64,000 nt of DNA from a virus (lineage: Duplodnaviria > Heunggongvirae > Uroviricota > Caudoviricetes), in IMG/VR virus record IMGVR_UViG_3300044878_000087, positions 130,432-194,431 of that record; one strand, 5' to 3'. Made by a program: the position numbers and the translations under genes. Shown in pieces: positions 1 through 31,157 of the stretch. The notes below the pieces were generated by a model. It did no database searches. It was not told where the DNA came from and saw nothing but the letters and a program-made list of their open reading frames with translations. Position 1 is the first letter of the stretch, and every line of letters starts with the position of its first letter.

Positions 1-2
1 CG

Positions 3-755
3 GTATTTACTGCGCCAGTTAAAGCAACCGCTGTGTCATATAACGGCCCAGGTCCACAGACACTGATTGACGGCGACCTTGACCTAGGTTATTACGGTAC
101 ATTGACGCAGGCCCAGTTATACACGATCGCTGGATTGTTCAGTGCTTCTGGGTTGGGTACTGGTGGTACAATGAACCCTACGAACACTGCCTTGACCTGG
201 CATAAGTTTTCCCGTAATGGGAAAACACTGTTCGTTCCAAGTACATTCATTGCATCCACAACCTGCTGGACTAACCTGTATAACAAAGGTTTAGTTTATG
301 GCGTCGATGGTAATGGTCCACAGAACCCAGGCACTGGTGTAAATCAGAAAGTTGTTTTACAAGTGGGTAATGACAGATTCTTAATCCGGTTACCTACCAA
401 TTATGATGATCGCGCTAACCCTAACCGTACAACCCCTGCTGGCGTAACTACAGCTGATACCAGCTCTGGTCGCAAATACAGTGAAGCAGCTGACCTGCTC
501 TGGTCATTGCTTCCATATGCACCCGCATTCCAACGGTTCGCAAGAAAGTCCCCATACTACACCACTGCCTCTATGGAATGGTTATCGGCCGGTCAAGGCT
601 ATCGATTGATCGGCCAAGAGCAAAGTAGCGGGAACGTAATAATGAACACAAACATCGATTCCATCGGTGGTATGTCTGCCGGTGTATCGCTAGCAATTGG
701 TGTATCGGGTGGCGCTAATGGATGGCGTCCAATATTGGAACTCATCGACGATTAA
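3..755 (+). CDS. paralog-family protein 1 (5' partial; open to window start); GPGP..GYYG..W.KF..GK.LF.P motif shared with 770 and 1927 genes; putative virion/host-recognition protein
   Basis: ORF open upstream of the GTG listed at 33; ~120-aa core homologous to the two downstream genes. Confidence 0.6.
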   Translation, partial: VFTAPVKATAVSYNGPGPQTLIDGDLDLGYYGTLTQAQLYTIAGLFSASGLGTGGTMNPTNTALTWHKFSRNGKTLFVPSTFIASTTCWTNLYNKGLVYGVDGNGPQNPGTGVNQKVVLQVGNDRFLIRLPTNYDDRANPNRTTPAGVTTADTSSGRKYSEAADLLWSLLPYAPAFQRFARKSPYYTTASMEWLSAGQGYRLIGQEQSSGNVIMNTNIDSIGGMSAGVSLAIGVSGGANGWRPILELIDD

Positions 756-769
756 TCATGGAGCATTAA

Positions 770-1657
770 ATGACCATTCGTTTAACCTGGACGAATCCGA
801 ACACTGCGTCCGATTCAGTAACAATCTATCGCGATACCAACCCCATCAACCCTGCTAGTCTGCCTGCACCATTGGCAACAATCACTGATGGGTCAACAAC
901 GTATGACGATAGCAATAACCTAGTGCGTAATACGTTGTATTACTATGCCTTTAGTGTCAATAAAAATGGAGACGCTTCTCTTTCGGCACAAAAGGTCATT
1001 TGTAATATGCCCAACACTGGACCTGGGCCAACCTCGTTTGTCCGAGGGGATTGGCTATTGGGTTATTTTGGTGACCTAACCACAGCCGAATTATTCACTG
1101 CCACGCAATTGCAATCGTTGGTTGGATTAAACGCCGCAACTGGCTTGGACTCCTTTACTTGGAGTAAGTTTGCATACAAAGGGAAAGTACTATACTTCCC
1201 TTCGCAGCATCTGCACAACTCCGTTGGATGGAACCTGCTGTATAGCAAAGGCTTGGTATTTGGAACGACGGACACTGGCCCAACTGGTCATAGCAACACA
1301 CCAGTAAACCAACAAATAAAAGTTACTAAAGGTAGTGATGAGTTCATTGTGCGATTACCACGCACTAACTTAACACCTGGTTATGTACAGGGCACTATTG
1401 ATACAGCCAGCGAATGGTACCAATGTGTGGTGGCTCAATGGTCAGCATATAACAGCGGTCTATTGGCACTAAACCAATTAGCGCCAACATGGACTGGTTC
1501 GCCTGCACCCATGGCTGAATTTGTAGCCGGTGTCACAACCCTGGGATGTGCCTATGTCACGGGTAGCCCAGTACCGAATACAGCCACCCCAGGAACATGT
1601 GCACGCAGTTCATCGTCATATCTGTGGCGCCCTGTATTGGAATACGTTCCATCGTAA
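770..1657 (+). CDS. paralog-family protein 2; FN3-like N-terminus (W.NP....Y.V.R......YYYA.S.NKNG) followed by the GPGP core; contains an RGD tripeptide
   Basis: ATG 15 nt after the previous stop; shared core motif with 33 and 1927 genes. Confidence 0.65.
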   Translation: MTIRLTWTNPNTASDSVTIYRDTNPINPASLPAPLATITDGSTTYDDSNNLVRNTLYYYAFSVNKNGDASLSAQKVICNMPNTGPGPTSFVRGDWLLGYFGDLTTAELFTATQLQSLVGLNAATGLDSFTWSKFAYKGKVLYFPSQHLHNSVGWNLLYSKGLVFGTTDTGPTGHSNTPVNQQIKVTKGSDEFIVRLPRTNLTPGYVQGTIDTASEWYQCVVAQWSAYNSGLLALNQLAPTWTGSPAPMAEFVAGVTTLGCAYVTGSPVPNTATPGTCARSSSSYLWRPVLEYVPS

Positions 1658-1671
1658 AAGGTAATCGGTCT

Positions 1672-1866
1672 ATGAGCCTACACAAGTTGTTGGAAGCTGT
1701 AGAGCGCTTGGAGAACCTTACTCCAGAAGAGAAGCGCGCACTACACGAGCGTGCAGCCGAACGCATGCGTAAGTTTGATGAAGAATGTGCTGAACGTATT
1801 CGTAAGAGTATTCCATCACAAGAACTGTTGAACAAAGTTTGCAACTGGGGTACCCTATATGGCTGA
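1672..1866 (+). CDS. small helical hypothetical protein (64 aa, MSLHKLLEAVERL...)
   Basis: RBS AAAGGTAA upstream of the ATG at 1672; the ORF track start at 1597 probably lies too far upstream. Confidence 0.45.
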   Translation: MSLHKLLEAVERLENLTPEEKRALHERAAERMRKFDEECAERIRKSIPSQELLNKVCNWGTLYG

Positions 1867-1882
1867 GCAGCTACGGCTGCTC
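1865..1882 (+). terminator. hairpin GAGCAGC-TACG-GCTGCTC followed by the TTATGCCGCTATCCTAT box
   Basis: perfect 7-bp stem directly after the stop at 1866; same box as at 3938. Confidence 0.4.
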
Positions 1883-1926
1883 TTATGCCGCTATCCTATG
1901 TTAAAAATATATTAAAATAAAGGGAT

Positions 1927-2676
1927 ATGAGGAAGAGCATGTTTGAGGTACTATTAAGTGGTGGGGCACCCGCTACAAAAACAGTTTATCCCAATAGTGG
2001 CCCAGGCCCACAGACACTATTGTTAGGGGATGAGAATATCGGTTACTTTGGAGAGTTATCGGCCGGCGAAGTAATCACCAATGCTGACTTGAAGGCCTTC
2101 CTTAATCCATCGATGCAAAGTAGCGTTATGGTCGATAAAGGATGGTTTAAATGTTTCCACAAAGGCAAAGTAAAGTTTATCTCTAAAGGGGGTACATTTA
2201 CTAACACTGCATGGACTGCACTATATGCTTCCGGTGGCGTCTATGGTACCAATGACAATGGCTTATATCCAATCGGCACAGCTACAAACCAGTATAAGCC
2301 GTTTAACATCACTAATGGTCCTGTGACATGGAAATTGATTCCTAAGCTTATGTCAGGTGGTCAGAATGATCCTAGTAGTAGTTCCCCAGGGGATGATGGT
2401 AGCGAATATACCGATCTAATGTACCGTATGTTTACAGGCACCCATCCGAATGGAGGTGCATTCTTAAAGTATCTTAAAGCAGATGTTGCAATGAACTCGG
2501 CACATGCCTGCGTAGAATCGAAAGACACATTAACAACCAGCACCATTGTTCGTGGTTATACTGGCGTTATTAGTAACTCGGCACAGGTATTGACTAAAGG
2601 CGACAGATCCGGCTATGGGCAAATCTGTCGAATGGTTCTAGTAGTTGAGGGTGATCCAAAAGTCTTACCCGTATAA
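1927..2676 (+). CDS. paralog-family protein 3 (GPGPQTLLLGDENIGYFGEL...)
   Basis: RBS AAGGGA; homologous core to the 33 and 770 genes. Confidence 0.65.
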   Translation: MRKSMFEVLLSGGAPATKTVYPNSGPGPQTLLLGDENIGYFGELSAGEVITNADLKAFLNPSMQSSVMVDKGWFKCFHKGKVKFISKGGTFTNTAWTALYASGGVYGTNDNGLYPIGTATNQYKPFNITNGPVTWKLIPKLMSGGQNDPSSSSPGDDGSEYTDLMYRMFTGTHPNGGAFLKYLKADVAMNSAHACVESKDTLTTSTIVRGYTGVISNSAQVLTKGDRSGYGQICRMVLVVEGDPKVLPV

Positions 2677-2680
2677 GAAA

Positions 2681-2710
2681 TAAAGAAATACTGAGAGTGT
2701 AATAGTATAC
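2681..2710 (+). promoter_or_regulatory. plus-strand promoter-like motif TAAAGAAATAC-N14-TATAC
   Basis: one of five copies (2681, 4885, 6239, 6581, 7037); begins at or next to the upstream stop codon and precedes the tRNA cluster. Confidence 0.4.
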
Positions 2711-2827
2711 GAGAGACTGCCGTTAAAGTCTCCAAACGAGCGTAAGAGTAGGAATCCCCTATAGCCTACTCGACAGGGACCAGGGATATCGGTTAGCCTG
2801 GTTTAACAAAAACCCGACCAAGTTTCA

Positions 2828-2903
2828 GGGTGTGTAGTTCAATTGGCAGAGTAGCGCGCTCCAAACGCGTTGGTTCCAGGTTCGAGTCCAGCCATGCCCG
2901 CCA
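2828..2903 (+). tRNA. tRNA-Trp: tRNA-Trp (anticodon CCA), 76 nt; T-stem carries two mismatches
   Basis: acceptor GGGTGTG/CATGCCC (2 GU pairs), D arm GTTC/GAGT, anticodon arm GCGCG-CTCCAAA-CGCGT, T-loop GGTTCGAGTCC, 3' GCCA. Confidence 0.55.
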
Positions 2904-3623
2904 AACACCACAGACGTCAGTCTGCAAGTCCCCTGGCCTAACCCGCCTTGGGCACCTAAGTTAGTAGTTGAGATATCAGGAGGGTGGGTGTTGCGATTGC
3001 CTCCACTGGTCTGAATAGATCGCGTCAATCGGAATCTATAGTACTTAAAGCCGATTGAGGTAAAGTGGTAAGATCGTCATATCTCCGCTACAAACCCATT
3101 CTCCCTTGAGAGTGGTAAGACCCTCGCAATGGCGTGGGCAGGTCATACACCGATGCCTGATTAATCCTCAGACTAGGGCACCGAGCTGCATGGTGTGTGA
3201 TTATCGAACCCTAAGACGGTTGGCAAAAGATCAGAATAGCCGACTAGCAGGGAAGCTCAAAGCCCGATCCGACAAATACCCCAAAGACCTGATGATCCAG
3301 GTTACTAAGGCGTCATACCGAAGACACGTGAAGACTCGGCTGCAACGGATCAGATGTCCGTCACAGGTTGGCATGGAACAATAGTTCTGTGCGCAACCAC
3401 ATATTCTCAATTACTTGCCCTCCATCGTACTGAAGCTTTGCATGGCGAGTAAGTAGATAGACCTAACGAAACGGTTCGACCTCTAGCGGAATGCCGCGAC
3501 CAGCCCGTGCTGTACATTAGGATAAAAAGCTCGCCCAGCGGCGATCTACACCATACCCGCAATCTGCAGGAATGGATAACCAAGGCTTGAATCTTGGATG
3601 CTGGGAACGAATTTTAGAAACAC
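2904..3623 (+). ncRNA. ORF-poor ~700 bp spacer inside the tRNA cluster; candidate stable structured RNA(s), or degenerate intron/homing-endonuclease remnant
   Basis: no ORF >=60 aa except an Arg-rich 92-aa frame without an RBS; flanked by tRNAs; T4-type tRNA clusters are known to carry stable small RNAs. Confidence 0.3.
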
Positions 3624-3711
3624 GCGGGGATGGTGGAGCGGTATACGCAGCGGCCTTAAAAGCCGCCGCCCTTTACGGGCTCGCTGGGTTCGAATCCCGC
3701 TCCCCGCACCA
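3624..3711 (+). tRNA. tRNA-Leu: tRNA-Leu (anticodon TAA), class II with long variable arm
   Basis: acceptor GCGGGGA/TCCCCGC+ACCA; anticodon arm GCGGC-CTTAAAA-GCCGC; T-loop GGTTCGAATCC. Confidence 0.9.
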
Positions 3712-3717
3712 TATACA

Positions 3718-3805
3718 GGAAGCATGGCCGAGTGGCTCAAGGCAACGGTCTTGAAAACCGTCGGGTGTAATAGCCCCTAGAGTTCGAATCTCTATGCTTC
3801 CGCCA
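3718..3805 (+). tRNA. tRNA-Ser: tRNA-Ser (anticodon TGA), class II
   Basis: acceptor GGAAGCA/TGCTTCC+GCCA; anticodon arm ACGGT-CTTGAAA-ACCGT; T arm TAGAG-TTCGAAT-CTCTA. Confidence 0.9.
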
Positions 3806-3809
3806 GATC

Positions 3810-3885
3810 GCCGACATAGCTCAGATGGCAGAGCAACTGACTTGTAATCAGTAGGTCTTCGGTTCGATTCCGAATGTCGGCACCA
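3810..3885 (+). tRNA. tRNA-Thr: tRNA-Thr (anticodon TGT)
   Basis: acceptor GCCGACA/TGTCGGC+ACCA; anticodon arm ACTGA-CTTGTAA-TCAGT; T-loop GGTTCGATTCC. Confidence 0.9.
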
Positions 3886-3918
3886 GTTATTGTTATTGGC
3901 CTATAGAGCCCCTCGCTT

Positions 3919-3938
3919 GGCCTACCTTTGGGTAGGCT
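3919..3938 (+). terminator. hairpin GGCCTACC-TTTG-GGTAGGCT followed by TTTATGCCGTTATCCTATAC; likely terminator of the tRNA cluster
   Basis: GC stem followed by a T-rich tract immediately after the last tRNA. Confidence 0.5.
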
Positions 3939-3981
3939 TTATGCCGTTATCCTATACATTCTTTTAAGATGGATAACGGTA

Positions 3982-4887
3982 ATGTTTGAAGCACTATTAC
4001 TGGGTAAAGGTTCAAGTGCCCCAATTGGTGGTGCATGGTTAAAATTAGGCGGTTCATTTCCAGGCCGTTATGCTGGCGCCGGAGCAGTATCTGGCGGAAA
4101 GATATATTTATTCGGTGGATACAATGCCGGTGGCCCCACTTATTACAATGACATGCAGTGTTATGATCCTGCATTACAGACATGGTCAGCAAAAGCCACT
4201 GGACCAGCAGGGCGATACAACCACGTAATGGTAGAATGTAATGGATACCTATATCTCCATGGCGGTGTTAACGGTGGTGGCTATTTATCAGACATGTGGC
4301 GTTATGATCCTGTAGGTAATACATGGTTAGCTAGGGCTTCTACAGGTAGTGGTGGCCGTGATGGTGGTGCAATGGCGGCAGTCGGGACTAAGATCTATGC
4401 TGTTTGTGGATATGTTCCTAACGTCTATAGTACCGAAATGCGCATATATGACACGGTAGCAAACACCTGGTCATTAGGAACACCACTACCAGCAACAGGG
4501 CGTTCGAATGCCACAATGGTGGCGATTGGTACAAAGCTTTACTTGTATGCTGGTCAAGCGCCATCAATGAATGATTTGTGGTGTTTCGATACGGTGGCTG
4601 GAACATGGACACAACTGGCCGATGGTCCAAGTGCACGTACCAACCATACTGCTACGGTATTGAATGGCAAGATGTATATGCATGGTGGTTCAGGCACAGT
4701 GGAAGGTACATCTGCAAAATTCTATAGCTATGACCCTAACACAAATCTATGGACTACGCTAACGGCCAGTCCTACAGGTAGTCAACGTTCCGATGCTTGC
4801 CTAGTTGCGATGGATGGAAAGATTTATCTTACCGGTGGCTACAACCCACCAACGTACCCTACAGACATTTATCAGTTCACGCCATAA
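3982..4887 (+). CDS. Kelch-repeat beta-propeller protein (about 6 repeats: GG..G...ND...YDP..N.W)
   Basis: repeated Kelch motifs; ATG at 3982 preferred over the TTG at 3928 that falls inside the hairpin box. Confidence 0.75.
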   Translation: MFEALLLGKGSSAPIGGAWLKLGGSFPGRYAGAGAVSGGKIYLFGGYNAGGPTYYNDMQCYDPALQTWSAKATGPAGRYNHVMVECNGYLYLHGGVNGGGYLSDMWRYDPVGNTWLARASTGSGGRDGGAMAAVGTKIYAVCGYVPNVYSTEMRIYDTVANTWSLGTPLPATGRSNATMVAIGTKLYLYAGQAPSMNDLWCFDTVAGTWTQLADGPSARTNHTATVLNGKMYMHGGSGTVEGTSAKFYSYDPNTNLWTTLTASPTGSQRSDACLVAMDGKIYLTGGYNPPTYPTDIYQFTP

Positions 4888-4914
4888 AGAAATACCCTCA
4901 ACAAAAACTATATA
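4885..4914 (+). promoter_or_regulatory. plus-strand promoter-like motif TAAAGAAATAC-N13-TATAT (contains the Kelch stop codon)
   Basis: family member; about 50 nt upstream of the 4965 ATG. Confidence 0.4.
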
Positions 4915-4964
4915 GGGGACCTCCGGGTTTCCTTTATAGCCCAATACCCCAATAGGACTTTCCA

Positions 4965-5354
4965 ATGTATACAAGATTCATGTACCCCCCACGTAGGAAA
5001 ACGCCAACTGACCGTATTCGTGAAGGCGAAGCTCACCGTGCACGTCTAGCTATACGAGAAGCCATTGAAGCCGAAAATACTCGGTTCAAAGGACCAGAAC
5101 CAATTGGTGAGGCAGTAGTAGCTTACGGTGCCGGAATGCATACTGTGTTTCAGCGTATGCGTGGTGATGCCGTGTACAGTAGTGACCAGACGCGTGCGTT
5201 ACTTGAAGATGCGATGTGTAACATACGCAAAGAGTTCACGGAACGACAACGTGAATATCATCGGTATGAACCAACTGTAGTCATCATGACAGACGGCAAA
5301 AGAGATTATTTCTCTCTTCGTTTGGATGGATGGGAAATAATGAGGATCAGCTAA
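4965..5354 (+). CDS. hypothetical protein (129 aa)
   Basis: ORF; its stop TAA overlaps the next start (TAATG). Confidence 0.55.
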   Translation: MYTRFMYPPRRKTPTDRIREGEAHRARLAIREAIEAENTRFKGPEPIGEAVVAYGAGMHTVFQRMRGDAVYSSDQTRALLEDAMCNIRKEFTERQREYHRYEPTVVIMTDGKRDYFSLRLDGWEIMRIS

Positions 5355-6241
5355 TGGAAACACTACCATTGATATACAAAGAACACCTATCTGAACTGGA
5401 TCAATCCGTTAACTTCGAACATCGCATGACCGATCACAAAGGAATGTTAGAAGCACGTTACGTACGACGTAGCGATGATTACTTCATTGTTTATTTGTCG
5501 TCTCAAACAGGATGTAAACAAGCCTGTCGTATGTGTCATCTAACAGCTACGGGTCAAACAGATCTTCGCGACACTACTATCGAAGAATACTGGGATCAAG
5601 CTGATCGTGTACTGAGGTACTATGCTAACAAAACTCCTGCCCGGATGGTGCACTTTAACTTCATGGCTCGTGGTGAACCATTGGCTAATAAGATCTTCCT
5701 AGAGAATGCCGACTTGATTCTGCGTGGTCTAGCTAATCGGGCAAAAGCATTAGGGTTGGAATATAAATTCCTCATATCCACAATCTTCCCAAAAGAGTTT
5801 GATGTCTATGAACTCACCGATGTTTTTAAAGACCCTGCTTTAAGACCGGAACTTTATTACTCGTTGTATTCAACGGATCGTGACTTCCGTAGAAAGTGGC
5901 TAGGTAAAGCAATTGAACCTGGTATTGCACTTACCCTGCTCGGACGTTGGAATCGATCTACTGGTAAAGTACCTAAGATCCATTATGCATTCATTGATAA
6001 TGAAAACGATTCACTCGGTGATGTAAAGCGTTGCATTGATCTGATCCAGCATTATAACGTTCCCGTCAATTGGAACATTGTTCGATATAATCCACCTAAC
6101 GATAAATCGAAAGAGACCATCGAAGGACAAATCAATTACCTGGCTGGTTACATTCGTAGTCGTCTACCGAAGGCACGAGTGAAAGTAATCCCACGGGTCG
6201 GTACAGATGTAAAAGCCAGCTGTGGTACGTTCTTGAAATAA
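5354..6241 (+). CDS. radical SAM enzyme, RlmN/Cfr-like RNA methyltransferase core (SSQTGCKQACRMC...; C-terminal ASCG), lacking the usual N-terminal domain
   Basis: CxxxCxxC preceded by the RlmN/Cfr SSQ.GC hallmark and a C-terminal Cys in an (A/S)CG context; RBS GAGGA; alternative start at 5330. Confidence 0.7.
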   Translation: METLPLIYKEHLSELDQSVNFEHRMTDHKGMLEARYVRRSDDYFIVYLSSQTGCKQACRMCHLTATGQTDLRDTTIEEYWDQADRVLRYYANKTPARMVHFNFMARGEPLANKIFLENADLILRGLANRAKALGLEYKFLISTIFPKEFDVYELTDVFKDPALRPELYYSLYSTDRDFRRKWLGKAIEPGIALTLLGRWNRSTGKVPKIHYAFIDNENDSLGDVKRCIDLIQHYNVPVNWNIVRYNPPNDKSKETIEGQINYLAGYIRSRLPKARVKVIPRVGTDVKASCGTFLK

Positions 6242-6268
6242 AGAAATACTACAGTCGGTATCATATAC
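6239..6268 (+). promoter_or_regulatory. plus-strand promoter-like motif TAAAGAAATAC-N14-TATAC (overlaps the radical-SAM stop)
   Basis: family member. Confidence 0.35.
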
Positions 6269-6277
6269 GACCAGAGC

Positions 6278-6400
6278 ATGTGTTGTAAGCGGTTTGCATG
6301 CGCATGGTGGAAGAGACACATACAAACGACGGCTGTCAACTGTCGAACCGAATGCCTTATTTACGCATGTGACAATGTGTCTATTAAGGAAGTCGTGTAG
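6278..6400 (+). CDS. possible 40-aa Cys-rich peptide (MCCKRFACAWWKRHIQTTAVNCRTECLIYACDNVSIKEVV), immediately downstream of the radical SAM gene
   Basis: ATG about 10 nt after the TATAC element (would be near-leaderless); weak RBS; 6 Cys in 40 aa. Confidence 0.25.
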   Translation: MCCKRFACAWWKRHIQTTAVNCRTECLIYACDNVSIKEVV

Positions 6401-6551
6401 CCAAGCACTACGGAGATGACCTATCCTGCTGATTGCAGGGGCTTTGAAGTAGTACCACTGGAACGCGGCGCCGGATAACACCGTGATCCCTGATTACTTG
6501 GGGAAAAGCTGGCCGGCCATGGAGATATCTGGTTTAACTTACGCAACGAGT

Positions 6552-6567
6552 CTCACCTGCGGGTGGG
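6552..6567 (+). terminator. hairpin CTCACC-TGCG-GGTGGG followed by ACTTTATGCAGCGTAAAG
   Basis: hairpin plus TTTATGC box family. Confidence 0.45.
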
Positions 6568-6580
6568 ACTTTATGCAGCG

Positions 6581-6610
6581 TAAAGAAATACTCGCGGTAA
6601 TACAATATAC
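6581..6610 (+). promoter_or_regulatory. plus-strand promoter-like motif TAAAGAAATAC-N14-TATAC
   Basis: family member; upstream of the 6677 gene. Confidence 0.4.
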
Positions 6611-6676
6611 AGGACTATACGTTCAAGCACTTAGAAGATGAAGAGCATCTTTATCAAAGCTTGAAAGGTATAAAAC

Positions 6677-6988
6677 ATGTTTTACAATGATTGGTCCGAA
6701 AGTGGTATTGAAGGTTTGATGTGTGACTTCCGCATTAGCGAAAGCGAAATGGATGGGGTAACAATCATTTACGCTACTTATACTTACGAAGATTACAGTG
6801 GGTCCGCCTACGTACTATTCGTCAAGCATGGGAAGTATTATGAAGTCCATGGTTCTCACTGCTCCTGTATGGGACTGGAAGAACAATGGGACCCAGAGGA
6901 ATGTACCTACGTGGAATTGGCAGAGATGCTGACAAGGCGAGGTGATACTGAAGTCGCTCAGGCTCTCAATACTTACTTGGATAAATGA
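6677..6988 (+). CDS. hypothetical protein (103 aa) with a possible metal-binding HGSHCSC motif
   Basis: RBS AAAGG. Confidence 0.55.
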   Translation: MFYNDWSESGIEGLMCDFRISESEMDGVTIIYATYTYEDYSGSAYVLFVKHGKYYEVHGSHCSCMGLEEQWDPEECTYVELAEMLTRRGDTEVAQALNTYLDK

Positions 6989-7007
6989 ACTGTAGTTCTG
7001 TAGGTAG

Positions 7008-7027
7008 GAGTTCCCTTCGGGGAGCTC
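7008..7027 (+). terminator. hairpin GAGTTCCC-TTCG-GGGAGCTC (UUCG loop) followed by TTATGCCGTTAAAAG
   Basis: family member. Confidence 0.5.
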
Positions 7028-7036
7028 TTATGCCGT

Positions 7037-7066
7037 TAAAAGAATACTGGCGGTGTCAGTGTATGT
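7037..7066 (+). promoter_or_regulatory. plus-strand promoter-like motif TTAAAAGAATAC-N14-TATGT (variant), upstream of rtcB
   Basis: extended similarity to the 6581 copy over about 40 nt. Confidence 0.35.
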
Positions 7067-7100
7067 AACACTCCCTCTTTCCACTCGCGTGAGGCTTTAT

Positions 7101-8366
7101 ATGAAACAACAAACTCGTACATTCGAAATTCTCGGTGGTGAACCAGAACCAGGTTCTAAACCAATCAAAGGTTGGACCGTTGGTGTTCCCGTAGAACCCG
7201 ATGCAATCAAGCAACTCAAGAACTTGGCAGCTCTGCCATTCATCCAATCCCACCTGGCGGTAATGCCAGACGTGCATGTGGGTAAAGGTGCGACTATCGG
7301 TTCTGTGATCGCTACCAAAGGCGCAATCATTCCAGCAGCCGTAGGCGTTGACATCGGTTGTGGTATGGCGGCTTATCGCCTGAACGCTTCTGCTAAAGAT
7401 CTGCCTGATTCGTTGGGTCACGTTCGTGCAGCTATCGAAGCGGTAATCCCTCATGGCCGTACAGATAACGGCGGGAAGAACGACCGTGGTGCCTTCGGTA
7501 CTGTAAAAGTATTCAACCACCCAGTCAAGGCTGTCCGTGAAGAAGCTGAAAAGCTCAAGCGTGAACTGGAAGTCATCGTTCAGAAATATCCGAAGCTCTC
7601 TAAGGCTGCTGAGCGTGCATGGATGCATATCGGTACTCTCGGCACAGGTAATCACTTCGTAGAGCTGTGCTTGGACGAAGCGGACCGTGTATGGGTAATG
7701 CTGCACTCTGGTTCCCGTGGGATCGGTAACGCAATCGGTACACTGTTCATCAACCTGGCCAAAGAAGAGATGCGCCGCTTCTTTATCAACCTGCCAGATC
7801 AAGAACTCGGCTACTTGCCGTACGGTTCCAAGTACTACGCCGACTACCTGCATGCAGTACAGTGGGCACAACGTTTCGCTGCTCTGAATCGTTCTGTGAT
7901 GATGCATGCTACTTTGGATGCAATTCATCGTACCCTCGGTCTGCCAATCGATTCCGATATGGAAGCGATCAACTGCCACCACAACTACGTATCGGAAGAG
8001 CGTCACTTCGGTGATAACGTTCTGGTAACACGTAAAGGTGCAGTAGCGGCCTATGAAGGTAAGCTCGGGATCATTCCAGGTTCGATGGGCGCTAAGTCTT
8101 TCATCGTTCGTGGTAAAGGCCATCGTGATTCGTTCTGTTCATGTTCGCATGGTGCAGGTCGTGTAATGTCACGTAAGGCAGCAGAGCGTGTGTTCACGCT
8201 AGAGGACCACATTCGTGATACGGCTGGAGTTGAGTGCCGTAAAGACGAAGGCGTCCTAGATGAGACACCAAAGGCTTACAAGAATATCGATGATGTGATG
8301 GCAGCCCAAGCTGAACTGGTTGACATCGTCCATACCCTGAAACAAGTTCTTTGCGTTAAGGGTTGA
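7101..8366 (+). CDS. rtcB: RtcB 3'-phosphate/5'-OH RNA ligase
   Basis: hallmark GTGNHF, CHHNY and SCSHGAGR motifs; RBS GTGAGG before the ATG at 7101 (track start at 7053 is probably too early). Confidence 0.9.
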   Translation: MKQQTRTFEILGGEPEPGSKPIKGWTVGVPVEPDAIKQLKNLAALPFIQSHLAVMPDVHVGKGATIGSVIATKGAIIPAAVGVDIGCGMAAYRLNASAKDLPDSLGHVRAAIEAVIPHGRTDNGGKNDRGAFGTVKVFNHPVKAVREEAEKLKRELEVIVQKYPKLSKAAERAWMHIGTLGTGNHFVELCLDEADRVWVMLHSGSRGIGNAIGTLFINLAKEEMRRFFINLPDQELGYLPYGSKYYADYLHAVQWAQRFAALNRSVMMHATLDAIHRTLGLPIDSDMEAINCHHNYVSEERHFGDNVLVTRKGAVAAYEGKLGIIPGSMGAKSFIVRGKGHRDSFCSCSHGAGRVMSRKAAERVFTLEDHIRDTAGVECRKDEGVLDETPKAYKNIDDVMAAQAELVDIVHTLKQVLCVKG

Positions 8367-8367
8367 T

Positions 8368-9318
8368 ATGGACTACATCGGTTTCTGTGATGCAGTCGAT
8401 AAGTCTGCACTGAAACACGTGAGTGATATATCGAAACGACATTATCTGACAGCAGCCCAAGCCCCGGTGTACATCATCGGGCGTATCAATGAGGAACTGT
8501 TAGCGCAGTTCCCTGGGGCTAAGATTGCTACGGATTATTCCACGTATTATGATCCTCACGAATGGGGCGGCTGGTATTACTACGTCACCTCTACAATCAT
8601 TCAAAAAGAAATCACCTTCCAGTACTGTGCAGAGATTCATAATGCAATCGGTAAGAAAGAGTTTACCCTCGTAAATAAGGAAAGACCACCAGTGACTAAA
8701 TTTCAAGAACGTGTACAGAAATACTCTGCGGAAGTATTTGCTTCTCTGGTAGCAGATTCGACTCTGTCCTCCAGTCAGTTCATTACAGCATTCGAACGTG
8801 ACCTGATCGCCCGGTTGGAAGAGACTTACGACCGTAAAGGTTTCGAAGTATCACTGACCATCAGTCACGGAGCCTGTATCAGTTACAGTGCTGTCGTAGA
8901 AGACACTGTCGATGGGACAGAAGTAAAGTTGGATATCGGACGTGAAGATTACGTCACTGAAGATGAAACTGTTAAAGGGCTAAAGTGGTCAAAAGACTTC
9001 AGTCTGAAAACTGTCTATGCGAACGATCCAGAGTTCTTTACTAAGCTGTCGAAAGTTCGTGCAACCATCGAGTTCACTCGCATTGCAACCAATGCCTTGT
9101 CTGATGCTTTCCTGAGCCATGAAGACAGGCTCGATACACTGGATGGCGCTTTGGCTGTTCATGGACACGTCATGAGTGTTCTGCAAGAAGCTGCACCTCC
9201 ATGCAAGTTCACCATCAATGTAACTATCGAAAACCGTACTGCAACTTTGAACGTGGAAGAAGCCGTCACCAAAGTTAAGTTCCGTCTTCGTGCAACTCGT
9301 CAACCGGATGCCGTATAA
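8368..9318 (+). CDS. hypothetical protein (316 aa), translationally coupled to rtcB
   Basis: ATG 1 nt after the rtcB stop. Confidence 0.6.
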   Translation: MDYIGFCDAVDKSALKHVSDISKRHYLTAAQAPVYIIGRINEELLAQFPGAKIATDYSTYYDPHEWGGWYYYVTSTIIQKEITFQYCAEIHNAIGKKEFTLVNKERPPVTKFQERVQKYSAEVFASLVADSTLSSSQFITAFERDLIARLEETYDRKGFEVSLTISHGACISYSAVVEDTVDGTEVKLDIGREDYVTEDETVKGLKWSKDFSLKTVYANDPEFFTKLSKVRATIEFTRIATNALSDAFLSHEDRLDTLDGALAVHGHVMSVLQEAAPPCKFTINVTIENRTATLNVEEAVTKVKFRLRATRQPDAV

Positions 9319-9729
9319 ATGAAGAAGATCGTAATTGCTTTAAGCCTCGCTCTGGCGATGGCTGTTCCAGCTCATGCTGCTTCTGTGGTGCGCCAACACT
9401 CAGCGTGGGTCGAGTCTGCTAACTGCGTGTTGGTAGATCGTAAAGAATCCGTATCGGGTGGCCTGGTAGGCGGTGCGCTCGGTGGTGTTGGTGGTGCTCT
9501 GGTAGGTAGCCTGTTCGGTAAGAAAGGGCGCACAATCGGTGCCATCGGCGGTGCATTGGGTGGAGCCGCTTACGGTTCCTCCGGTGACAAAGTCTACAAC
9601 TGTTCAGTACTCGCCAGTCTGAATGATGGCTCCAAGCATCTGATCACCAAGATCACGAATACTCAAATCACAACCCAAGACAAGATCGGTGTAGTCGAAT
9701 TGTCTGATGGTACATTCCAAGCCTTGTAA
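9319..9729 (+). CDS. secreted glycine-zipper protein (signal peptide ...AHA/AS; GxxxG-rich segment)
   Basis: N-terminal signal peptide; Gly-zipper; ATG abuts the previous stop. Confidence 0.65.
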   Translation: MKKIVIALSLALAMAVPAHAASVVRQHSAWVESANCVLVDRKESVSGGLVGGALGGVGGALVGSLFGKKGRTIGAIGGALGGAAYGSSGDKVYNCSVLASLNDGSKHLITKITNTQITTQDKIGVVELSDGTFQAL

Positions 9730-9738
9730 GGAAGCATA

Positions 9739-11625
9739 ATGAAAACTGCATCTGAAATTCTCTCAGCTATCACGTTCGCCATTCAAGAAGTCGCTAGCCC
9801 TCTGGCGAAAGTTCCACCAGACTTCGGCTTGCGTGTAGCGCGTCACCTGCAAGGCACACCGTTCAACTACTCAACCAGTACTTCGACTCAAGGTCCTGAT
9901 GAGTTCATCATCTTCCTGGATGACTTCAAACAGAAAGACTGGATGGTAACGATCAAAATCCAAGGTGACTTCCAGTATACACTGGATGGCCCACATGAAG
10001 TAGGTCGCGATATCCCGGACACTGAAGAACTAAAAGCTCCAGAGGGACCTATCGTTCCTGGTGAACCAGAGATCACTGTAGCTCAAGCCATGGCCCGTAT
10101 CCGTGCTGCAATCGCAAGTGACGAAGGTTATGCATGGGGTTGGCAGTCTAATCTGGCGATGCCAATCTTGGATGACCTGGGTGTTAATCACAAACTGGCT
10201 AATCGTGCTGGTGCCCGCCTGCTGCAACACTTGTTCGGTTACGATATTACCAAGCAAAAAGAATACACTGATATCCAAAACCGTGTTGAAACCACCACGG
10301 TAGAAGATGATGTCGCTGACAGTATGCTCCACATCACTGTGACAGGTTACAAAGCCAATTCTGGCGCAGAAGAACTGTCACGTCGTTTGGCCGAGTATCT
10401 GAAGATGGGTGGTTATGAGGCACTGATCAATATCGCAGATACCACACTGGCCGGGGAAGAACGCTCAGTGGCACTGCCGCCAGAAGGTGTACGTATTCAT
10501 GTAACTGGCGTTGAATCTCGCTGGCATTCTGATCGTGTTGCTGAACCGGAAGATGTAGATATCCCATGTGGTGAAGGTGATGACTTCGGTGGCGACGATC
10601 CTTTAGATAGCGCTGATTCAGATGGTCCATGGGAAGTAGAAAGTGGTGCATTCGAATCTCAACCTAAACTTACACTACATGTAACCATCCCGAAGTATGA
10701 GTGTAACCCAACTCAAATCATCGATGCGTTGCGTGATCAGTATCCTGATGCTGACATCAGTGCCAAGATCAAACTTGATAACTTCGGTTGCGACTCGATC
10801 AAGGCTAACGCTGCCCTCAAGAAAGCTGTACGGTTCACTATCCATCCAGATGATCCAAATCCAGCAGCTACTATTGGGTACCTGCAGAACGAGTTCCGTA
10901 AAGCCTACGGCCTGGAACCAGTTATTCCAACCGTAGCTGAGCACCGCATTGGTTATGTAGAACCAATGGTGACGGATAGTGGTGAAGATACCGTCGAGTC
11001 TACGATTCAACCTACACTGACTATGGTCAAGGAAAAGATGATGCTATCTAATCCTGAGGATCGTGCCAATGCTTATCTCTTCGAACGTCGTGAAGGGGAT
11101 ACCTATCGGAACGTGTTGTTCCATGTTGACGTAGATGCAGAAGGTTTCGATGTTGAGCAGATCACTGGTGAAGGCTGGGGTATCGTAGAAGCATCACCTG
11201 GAGTATTCAATACCCTCCTGGAAAAAGTATCTCCGGAAGTTGTTCGATACTCGTTGGACTTGTACGAGAACAATGCTCGTTGGTTGAACCGTTTCGGCGA
11301 CGGTAAAGAGATCGCTACTCGTACACATGAAGGTCCATTCACACTGTACACTATCGGACAAGGAGCAATCCCAAAAGCGATCTATGGTGAAGTGGAAGAA
11401 TGCTGGACTGCTTTCCAAAACATCGATCGTCTACAGGAGCTCTCTGAGGAACTACGCGATCCATCTATTGTTATCGGGGCAGAAGACTACCTCAAGATAA
11501 CTCATGGTGGTTGCATGACAGTACGCGAACACCCGCGGTTGGAAGAACTGTTCTTGAAGTATATTCACTACAAGGCAACGTTCAACCCACTGATCGATCG
11601 TTGGATTAAATCTTTCGGTCTGTAA
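9739..11625 (+). CDS. large acidic hypothetical protein (628 aa)
   Basis: RBS AAGGAAG; long ORF. Confidence 0.6.
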   Translation: MKTASEILSAITFAIQEVASPLAKVPPDFGLRVARHLQGTPFNYSTSTSTQGPDEFIIFLDDFKQKDWMVTIKIQGDFQYTLDGPHEVGRDIPDTEELKAPEGPIVPGEPEITVAQAMARIRAAIASDEGYAWGWQSNLAMPILDDLGVNHKLANRAGARLLQHLFGYDITKQKEYTDIQNRVETTTVEDDVADSMLHITVTGYKANSGAEELSRRLAEYLKMGGYEALINIADTTLAGEERSVALPPEGVRIHVTGVESRWHSDRVAEPEDVDIPCGEGDDFGGDDPLDSADSDGPWEVESGAFESQPKLTLHVTIPKYECNPTQIIDALRDQYPDADISAKIKLDNFGCDSIKANAALKKAVRFTIHPDDPNPAATIGYLQNEFRKAYGLEPVIPTVAEHRIGYVEPMVTDSGEDTVESTIQPTLTMVKEKMMLSNPEDRANAYLFERREGDTYRNVLFHVDVDAEGFDVEQITGEGWGIVEASPGVFNTLLEKVSPEVVRYSLDLYENNARWLNRFGDGKEIATRTHEGPFTLYTIGQGAIPKAIYGEVEECWTAFQNIDRLQELSEELRDPSIVIGAEDYLKITHGGCMTVREHPRLEELFLKYIHYKATFNPLIDRWIKSFGL

Positions 11626-11646
11626 CAAAAAAAAATAAGGCATATT

Positions 11647-11666
11647 GGCTCTCCTCGAGGAGAGCC
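11647..11666. terminator. bidirectional palindromic hairpin GGCTCTCC-TCGA-GGAGAGCC at the convergence point of the + and - blocks; flanks CATATT / TTTATGCC
   Basis: perfect 8-bp stem between convergent stops (11625 and 11684); near-identical copy at 60020. Confidence 0.5.
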
Positions 11667-11683
11667 TTTATGCCGTAACAAAG

Positions 11684-12193
11684 TTACATTGGGGTAATCG
11701 ATACACCTTCTGGCAATTCATGAATGTAGCGAACTTGTCCACTCATCATTACCAGGAAGCCTGCAATCGGAGTACCGGCGGCATGAATGTTCAGAGACAC
11801 GAAACCAGCAACATCTTCAGTCAGTGCACCTGGCCACCGTTGAATGAAATGGAAACAGACATCGTCACCATTCTTCAACAGTTCACCAAATGCATCAATG
11901 ATCAGAGTTCTACGAGCTTGAGACATATCCACTCGGCCAGTGGATTCAATCTCGGTGTAACGAAGGAATGCTTCACGCGTCAAGCACCATTCTTGTGGAT
12001 TCGCTGCGCCAGCCGTACCACGGGTTTGAATCTTTACACGTATCACGTTTGCATCACCCATAGTCACGACAGCCACATCGCCATCGAGTCTTTGGATAGA
12101 ACCACGTAACAGGTTACCAGTTGCCGAGTAATACTCAACTGGTACCGATTGATCTTTTTGGGCGTAGAATGCTGCCAGAGCTTTCAGGTGCGA
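11684..12193 (-). CDS. hypothetical protein (about 170 aa from MSHLKALAAF)
   Basis: RBS AAGAGG before the internal ATG; the track start at 12259 probably lies too far upstream. Confidence 0.55.
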   Translation of the reverse strand, partial: SHLKALAAFYAQKDQSVPVEYYSATGNLLRGSIQRLDGDVAVVTMGDANVIRVKIQTRGTAGAANPQEWCLTREAFLRYTEIESTGRVDMSQARRTLIIDAFGELLKNGDDVCFHFIQRWPGALTEDVAGFVSLNIHAAGTPIAGFLVMMSGQVRYIHELPEGVSITPM

Positions 12194-31129: not shown

Positions 31130-31157
31130 GCAACCTCACAAAAGAAAACAACAGAAA

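Follow-up and report, generated by a model that had tools for sequence, protein, structure and literature searches.

A radical SAM enzyme subfamily of RlmN/Cfr fold with tyrosine at the resolving-cysteine position, and a candidate structured RNA beside its gene, in a jumbo phage

Does a radical S-adenosylmethionine (SAM) gene in a jumbo phage encode a cut-down copy of the RNA methyltransferases RlmN and Cfr, a maturase for a small peptide, or an enzyme of another kind? The question is posed by a 64,000-nt stretch of IMG/VR virus record IMGVR_UViG_3300044878_000087 (positions 130,432 to 194,431; hereafter, the window). The source is a jumbo phage with the Pseudomonas phages Psa21 and 201phi2-1 among its relatives. 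A first-pass annotation, made from the sequence alone, read the open reading frame (ORF) at 5354 to 6241 (+ strand) as a truncated RlmN/Cfr-like methyltransferase of 296 amino acids (aa), followed by a Cys-rich ORF of 40 codons; the frame encodes 295 aa. Here, we report that its product is complete and predicted to be functional, and that it belongs to a separate subfamily within the RlmN/Cfr (class A) fold, one without the N-terminal domain and with Tyr in place of Cys118 of RlmN (PHROG 27142). Fold, motifs, conservation pattern and genomic associations were computed, and chemistry and substrate were inferred. Contigs and loci used for comparison are given by our handles (L followed by a number).

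The fold was approached through domain, family and structure searches. A Pfam scan of the enzyme returned no domain besides Radical_SAM, itself below the gathering score (17.5 versus 29.5 bits). The nearest NCBIfam families were RlmN (TIGR00048, E = 1e-13) and the Cfr models (E = 1e-12), with matches spanning enzyme residues 15 to 293 and model positions 78 to 341 of 355; the hidden Markov models thus placed the protein next to RlmN and Cfr and not in a radical SAM family apart from them. A profile of 46 family members, compared with solved structures, gave Cfr 9p0p at E = 8e-18, with RlmN structures following at about 1e-7. The AlphaFold model (predicted local distance difference test, 90.6; predicted template modeling [TM] score, 0.89) was searched with Foldseek against the Protein Data Bank (PDB), where the ten best matches were all RlmN/Cfr (E = 7e-17 to 6e-11; TM, 0.62 to 0.80), led by RlmN structures 6fz6, 3rfa, and 5hr6 (TM, 0.75 to 0.80); the best match from another radical SAM family had a TM of only 0.53. 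Because NCBIfam, the family profile and the AlphaFold/PDB matches all lie nearest to RlmN/Cfr, this fold is established for the modeled enzyme, and the earlier preference for it over other radical SAM clans is borne out.

To name the enzyme RlmN would go too far, since its scores fall far under both curated cut-offs (50.6 versus 290 bits for TIGR00048; 42.7 versus 550 bits for Cfr model TIGR04432). With Escherichia coli RlmN (TIGR00048; 3RFA, 5HR7), which forms 2-methyladenosine (m2A) at 23S rRNA A2503 and tRNA A37, it shares the radical SAM core, including the extra N-terminal beta-strands (TM, 0.75 to 0.77), as well as the SSQxGCxxxCxxC cluster motif, the GEP and NP signatures, and a C-terminal loop bearing the methyl-carrier Cys. 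Identity to RlmN is, however, only about 19 to 23%, the N-terminal helical domain and the C-terminal tail of RlmN are absent, an invariant Tyr stands in for C118, and the SLHA of RlmN is YYSxYS in the enzyme family. Staphylococcus aureus Cfr (TIGR04432; 9P0P), which forms 8-methyladenosine (m8A) at A2503 and confers PhLOPSA resistance, is the best profile match among solved structures and has the same motifs, but it carries an N-terminal domain, and C105 where the family has Tyr47.

The N-terminal 75 to 85 or so residues of RlmN have no counterpart in the enzyme, as alignments begin at about RlmN residue 85 (model position 78), and nothing corresponds to the RlmN tail beyond the C-terminal Cys. 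Absence of the N-terminal domain had been noted at first reading and stands, at this smaller size instead of about 100 residues. The product is not a truncated copy, as had also been supposed, because PHROG 27142 is matched from end to end (E = 2.5e-138; residues 6 to 295 versus positions 4 to 300 of 300) and nearly all of the best homologues are 280 to 310 aa long; about 295 aa is the normal, full length of the family. A large protein collection contained 2328 homologues (849 cluster representatives at 50% identity), and the family occurs in jumbo phages and in bacteria. Members of PHROG 27142 include 201phi2-1 gp434, Psa21 gp398, and proteins of Phabio, D6, RVTF4, Viktualia, CcrColossus, CcrPW, and Brevundimonas jumbo phages; the window enzyme is 39 to 72% identical to its phage homologues. 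The PHROG is labeled "Fe-S-cluster redox domain-containing," GenBank calls the Psa21 and D6 homologues "ribosomal RNA large subunit methyltransferase N," and the names "RlmN" and "RNA methyltransferase" are homology transfer only.

Translation from 5354 is well supported, because a GAGGA ribosome-binding site lies 8 nt 5' of the ATG and the ATG overlaps, as TAATG, the stop codon that ends the 129-aa ORF before it (4965 to 5354, +); both elements are read directly from the sequence at 5342 to 5356 (+). The overlap suggests that the two frames may be translationally coupled. The preceding ORF gave a weak, subthreshold match to the TCKD domain of TiaS, a domain of tRNA-modifying enzymes (E = 0.011). 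It was considered as an obligate partner of the radical SAM gene and rejected, being kept only in L010, L011, and L018 to L020.

The active site sets the family apart. The cluster motif VYLSSQTGCKQACRMC (residues 46 to 61; 5489 to 5536, +) holds the predicted ligands C54, C58, and C61 (CX3CX2C), invariant across the family. Equally invariant is Cys290 (codon at 6221 to 6223, +), which lies in the context GxDVxASCGTF (ASCG, residues 288 to 291), aligns with the methyl-carrier Cys (RlmN C355, Cfr C338), and sits on a C-terminal loop that AlphaFold modeled with low confidence (flexible). Both elements had been named as the RlmN/Cfr hallmark and are indeed there; the hallmark is incomplete, as the position of the resolving Cys is occupied by Tyr47 (codon at 5492 to 5494, +). 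Tyr47 stood opposite RlmN C118/Cfr C105 in four independent alignments (with Cfr, with the C118A RlmN structure, with a Sphaerobacter RlmN-like structure, and with the E. coli RlmN sequence). Because the window enzyme has no Cys anywhere N-terminal to C54, the lack of a C118 equivalent holds whatever the alignment.

In an alignment of 266 family members, Y47, C54, C58, C61, and C290 were each conserved at about 100%, which indicates purifying selection on a predicted Cys/Tyr active site; beyond the four Cys conserved throughout, no further conserved Cys was found. Family-specific invariant aromatics (Y168, Y169, Y172, W182, and Y245) take the place of RlmN residues in the same alignment. The SAM-binding core is kept (FMARGEP for MGMGEP and NIVRYNP for NLIPWNP of RlmN). 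Two other short phage-encoded RlmN-like proteins, Tunturiibacter phage Tunturi_5 gp170 and Klebsiella phage 05F01 gene_104, likewise have the cluster motif and the C-terminal Cys without the N-terminal domain, but they are only 23 to 28% identical to the window enzyme; Tyr47 is therefore a signature of the enzyme's own family, since Tunturi_5 gp170 has Cys at the C118 position and 05F01 gene_104 has Val, plus an extra Cys in the motif.

What the substitution means depends on the known chemistry. Class A radical SAM methylases have two conserved Cys, of which C118 deprotonates C2 and is indispensable for crosslink resolution (PMC9692996). C355 of RlmN carries the methyl group, the C118A variant leaves a trapped covalent enzyme-tRNA complex (PMC9692996; PMC5130265), and no m2A is formed by that variant (PMC5130265). 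The first-pass annotation had offered methylation of A2503 or A37; with Tyr47 invariant where C118/C105 is indispensable, m2A or m8A at these sites cannot be assumed. It had also offered the phage's own tRNAs as substrates, and this too lost ground: the four neighboring phage tRNAs (Trp-CCA at 2828 to 2903, Leu-UAA, Ser-UGA, and Thr-UGU) are not among the isoacceptors methylated by RlmN in E. coli (Arg, Asp, Gln, Glu, and His; PMC5130265).

We think it fairly probable that the protein is an active, RNA-directed enzyme with an RlmN-like first half-reaction and with Tyr47 completing the cycle. C54, C58, and C61 would hold one [4Fe-4S] cluster, and a first SAM would methylate C290 on the flexible C-terminal loop. 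A second SAM would be cleaved to yield a 5'-deoxyadenosyl radical, after which a Cys-S-CH2 radical would add to an sp2 carbon of an RNA nucleobase. Tyr47, as a base and/or hydrogen-atom relay, could then stand in for Cys118 in product release; if release failed, the enzyme would remain covalently bound to the RNA. A tRNA or some other stable RNA is the probable target; because the RNA-binding N-terminal domain is absent, the canonical A2503/A37 pair probably is not.

Downstream of the gene, the 435-nt spacer at 6242 to 6676 is conserved at the DNA level (78% identity to L011, 62 to 65% to L010 and L013; partial matches in L003, L018, and Psa21). It contains a candidate structured non-coding RNA of about 315 nt at 6269 to 6581 (+), with a length of 305 to 323 nt in nine phages. 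A covariance model trained on seven sequences matched the window at 6265 to 6581 and found two loci outside the training set (E = 8e-29 and 2e-15), namely L228 (92 bits), directly 3' of its radical SAM gene, and L229 (52 bits). The structure model, scored on a nine-sequence alignment, has 39 pairs in seven helices. Standard pairs were formed in 90.4% of cells (37 to 48% in slid controls), 27 pairs had changed on both sides (8 to 14 in slid controls), the covariation score was 0.68 (0.09 to 0.15 in slid controls), and not one of these values was reached in 500 shuffles; the single-sequence fold gave z = -2.4.

One hairpin of this RNA (helix 2; 6328 to 6344, +) has a 5-bp stem, paired in nine of nine sequences with compensatory changes in four of its five pairs, and a 7-nt loop, CUGUCAA (CAGUCAA, CCGUCAA, and CUGCUAA in relatives). 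Its geometry is that of an anticodon stem-loop, which is recorded here as an observation only. It resembles an anticodon stem-loop of the tRNA-Asp(GUC) type, which may be coincidence; tRNA-Asp(GUC) is among the E. coli RlmN substrates (PMC5130265).

The RNA ends in a GC-rich hairpin followed by CTTTATGC (6548 to 6576, +), which resembles a terminator and has a form shared by other hairpins of this phage (31155 to 31244 and 63935 to 64000 on the - strand). Partial covariance-model matches at 31155 and 63935 were considered as extra copies of the RNA and rejected as ordinary terminator hairpins. A loose DNA pattern, GGCCGGCC...CTTTATGC, was uninformative, returning mostly chance matches in GC-rich viruses. 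With a tighter pattern, every true match to the element fell on a contig where the radical SAM gene had already been identified; three others had no covariance-model match and were due to chance. The element occurs only in phages that have the upstream tRNA cluster, and in 201phi2-1 and four other phages, protein genes occupy its place.

Rfam 15 gave no family match for 6269 to 6581 and, within 1 to 12000, matched only tRNAs; a search of 6230 to 6680 had ROSE_2 as its best match (E = 1.6), which is noise. The RNA is undescribed as far as the searched libraries and literature show. Large structured phage RNAs near tRNA genes are exemplified by GOLLD and ROOL. The candidate resembles them in being phage-borne, structured and beside tRNA genes, but it is only about 315 nt long and had no Rfam match, GOLLD and ROOL included, at E ≤ 10.

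A 24-nt motif, AATACT-N13-TATAC, lies directly 5' of the non-coding RNA (6245 to 6268). It has three strict copies in the 64 kb, all on the + strand; the others are at 2687 to 2710, 118 nt upstream of tRNA-Trp, and at 6587 to 6610, upstream of the next protein gene (6677 to 6988, +; PHROG 8792). In related phages, the motif ends 1 to 2 nt before tRNA-Leu genes (the mature 5' end) and is also found upstream of tRNA-Trp. Because it is common to tRNA genes and the non-coding RNA, it is best read as a putative promoter for stable RNAs, probably of a class dedicated to the RNA polymerase of the phage itself. The motif, with an extended consensus of AATACTGG..GTGTAATAGTATAC, was also seen in L001, L003, L010, L011, L013, L018, and L228, and across the phage group it marks tRNA genes, the non-coding RNA and one small protein gene.

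The Cys-rich ORF (6278 to 6400, +; 40 codons, six Cys) falls inside this RNA. The ORF and the TATAC-ending element before it both exist as first described, yet the ORF is no more than a chance frame (57 ORFs of at least 30 aa occur in the 5 kb around it), and the motif would serve the non-coding RNA. By tblastn and six-frame inspection of eight related spacers, it was not conserved in L003, L010, L011, L013, L018, Psa21, L228, or L229; the nearest spacer homologue, L011, has a stop after eight codons, and the others hold unrelated short ORFs. As judged from these comparisons, it is not a gene and lies in a separate, predicted transcription unit that makes the RNA of about 315 nt.

Around these elements, the gene order shared with Psa21 runs tRNA cluster, small ORFs, radical SAM gene, gap of about 400 nt, small gene, and the RNA ligase gene rtcB (RtcB; 7053 to 8366, +). 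Within the Pseudomonas-phage subclade, the radical SAM gene thus sits among the tRNA cluster, the non-coding RNA and RtcB, and its synteny with RtcB is kept. The tRNA adjacency was rejected as independent evidence of function, being restricted to that subclade; as it is missing in 201phi2-1 and in all more distant phages, the tRNA/RtcB adjacency is lineage synteny.

A scan of species-representative bacterial and archaeal genomes for homologues gave 76 loci, of which the 75 with a usable match were tabulated. In 40 of the 75 loci, all in Planctomycetota and Myxococcota and some on complete chromosomes of 7.8 to 9.1 Mb, the radical SAM gene adjoins a gene for an AbiEii-family nucleotidyltransferase (PF08843, E = 3e-28; PADLOC AbiEii, E = 1e-60), in most cases across a gap of 54 to 340 bp. 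A protein of about 500 aa with TIGR02996/leucine-rich repeats (LRR) follows the AbiEii gene in 36 of the 40, a sulfotransferase-like gene is then also present in 21, and no AbiEi-type antitoxin gene was found at any of the 40. The arrangement is usually divergent; in L043, the radical SAM, AbiEii and LRR genes lie in that order on one strand. The linkage appears old, because the partner proteins are only 33 to 40% identical between the two phyla. In a neighbor-joining tree, the AbiEii-linked sequences form a single derived clade. This clade and a pair of sequences from alphaproteobacterial metagenome-assembled genomes (MAGs) together have the Pseudomonas-phage clade as their sister group, and the other phage and bacterial sequences branch deeper. 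By tblastn, AbiEii was absent from the 64-kb window and present only beside the bacterial homologues.

AbiEii/MenT toxins attack or modify tRNA 3' ends. The association is a real lead to RNA-directed conflict systems and no proof of phage function, and the radical SAM/AbiEii/LRR cluster may be an undescribed toxin or defense system. Such clusters lie at L106 (2975 to 7915), L107 (2370 to 7912) and about 40 loci among L030 to L102, and some add a 2-oxoglutarate-Fe(II) oxygenase and a metallo-beta-lactamase-fold (anti-Pycsar-like) protein. No published link between a radical SAM protein of this kind and AbiEii was found in the literature. The "Ophion" anti-jumbo-phage system, which comprises radical SAM, PHP, and PRTase proteins, was rejected as a precedent because its architecture is unrelated (bioRxiv 2025.09.30.679545). 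In a different context, the Pseudomonas fluorescens megaplasmid pMPCFBP13716 (971 kb; L070, 4710 to 11404), from the phage's likely host genus, carries a family member in a co-directional operon of five proteins of 360 to 420 aa with no Pfam match.

Several points tell against an RNA-directed enzyme completed by Tyr47. The RNA substrate is argued from homology and neighborhood, and Tyr is not known to have a demonstrated role as the resolving residue in any class A enzyme, which leaves the second half-reaction conjectural. Only one phage subclade places the gene beside tRNA genes; 201phi2-1 and the phages of Caulobacter and Brevundimonas do not. Among bacterial loci not in the AbiEii-linked clade, no common neighbor was seen, and transcription of the RNA of about 315 nt is a prediction. 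A literature search found no paper on the enzyme family and no biochemical data for any member. One rival reading takes the protein for a genuine RlmN/Cfr orthologue in a phage, forming m2A or m8A at 23S rRNA A2503 and/or tRNA A37. Both families are nearest by sequence and fold, the cluster motif and methyl-carrier Cys are conserved, and the Psa21 and D6 homologues are annotated in this way. We hold it unlikely all the same, given the shortfall against both curated models, an invariant Tyr where m2A formation needs C118, the missing N-terminal domain and C-terminal tail, and nearby phage tRNAs unlike RlmN substrates. Rather improbable is another radical chemistry on the RlmN scaffold, either a non-methylating Cys290/Tyr47 hydrogen-atom relay, of which spore photoproduct lyase offers an example of the Cys/Tyr kind, or a deliberate, stable enzyme-RNA adduct. 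The invariant Tyr47 and the five family-specific aromatics do differ from RlmN, and RlmN without its resolving Cys becomes trapped on RNA (5hr6/5hr7); but a single-turnover enzyme would be an unusual solution, and the GxDVxASCG methyl-carrier loop hardly differs from its RlmN/Cfr counterpart, a sign that methyl-Cys chemistry is probably retained.

A role in counter-defense is biologically attractive but likewise unlikely. The bacterial proteins would partner an AbiEii-type nucleotidyltransferase toxin, as antitoxin-like or co-acting components, and the phage enzyme alone would protect or alter the RNA target during infection. Adjacency in 40 of 75 loci and two phyla, its survival of the rearranged order in L043, the age of the linkage, and a phage window with no AbiEii gene yet with the RNA-repair ligase RtcB are all consistent with it. 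Set against these, the AbiEii-linked sequences are one derived clade to which the phage sequences are sister or deeper, so that the association may be secondary; the mostly divergent arrangement is unlike a classical antitoxin-toxin operon; no model in the PADLOC library covers the radical SAM protein; and toxicity and neutralization are conjecture. A wider RNA-conflict module seems quite unlikely, in which the Tyr-for-Cys enzyme (a new catalytic solution or a covalent RNA trap) would, carried by the phage without the AbiEii/LRR partners of its bacterial relatives, counter tRNA-directed abortive-infection toxins, the RNA of about 315 nt, with its anticodon-stem-loop-like hairpin, would be its substrate or a tRNA decoy, and RtcB would repair collateral damage. 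Maturation of the 40-aa peptide by the radical SAM enzyme, the alternative floated in the first-pass annotation, is refuted in our view and has a negligible chance of being right. Adjacency and the six Cys are all that speak for it; the ORF is missing or broken in all eight related phages that keep the spacer, substitutions there preserve base pairs and not codons, and no clear Shine-Dalgarno sequence precedes the ATG, located about 9 nt from the predicted 5' end of the transcript. The enzyme, with only four conserved Cys and no other Pfam domain, lacks an auxiliary cluster of the SPASM/twitch type and any recognizable peptide-recognition domain.

The family bears on a defining feature of its class. 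A two-Cys ping-pong defines the class A methylases, and over 2,000 proteins have retained the methyl-carrier Cys with an invariant Tyr for the resolving one; they offer a natural test of whether product release needs a thiol, or a new chemistry on the RlmN scaffold. The labels "RlmN" and "23S rRNA A2503 methyltransferase" on phage and MAG homologues are unjustified, as is the implication of Cfr-like resistance. The AbiEii linkage in two phyla suggests an RNA-modification layer in toxin or abortive-infection systems, a layer that jumbo phages may have borrowed, and the RNA of about 315 nt is a candidate for a new class of phage non-coding RNA, which raw ORF scans take for a peptide gene.

Three further features lie 5' of the radical SAM operon. 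Between it and the tRNA cluster, 3928 to 4887 (+) encodes a 319-aa, six-bladed Kelch-repeat beta-propeller (Kelch_1, E = 5e-54) with matches among phage "virion structural" PHROGs and an uncertain TTG start. The roughly 720 nt between tRNA-Trp and tRNA-Leu (2904 to 3623) hold a single 92-aa ORF with a TTG start and no PHROG match, and the Psa21 counterpart carries a polysaccharide lyase or HNH endonuclease gene. Just 5' of the tRNA region, 33 to 2676 (+) encodes three tandem paralogues (240, 295, and 249 aa) of PHROG 1062/3589 virion structural proteins, which mirror 201phi2-1 gp439 to gp442.

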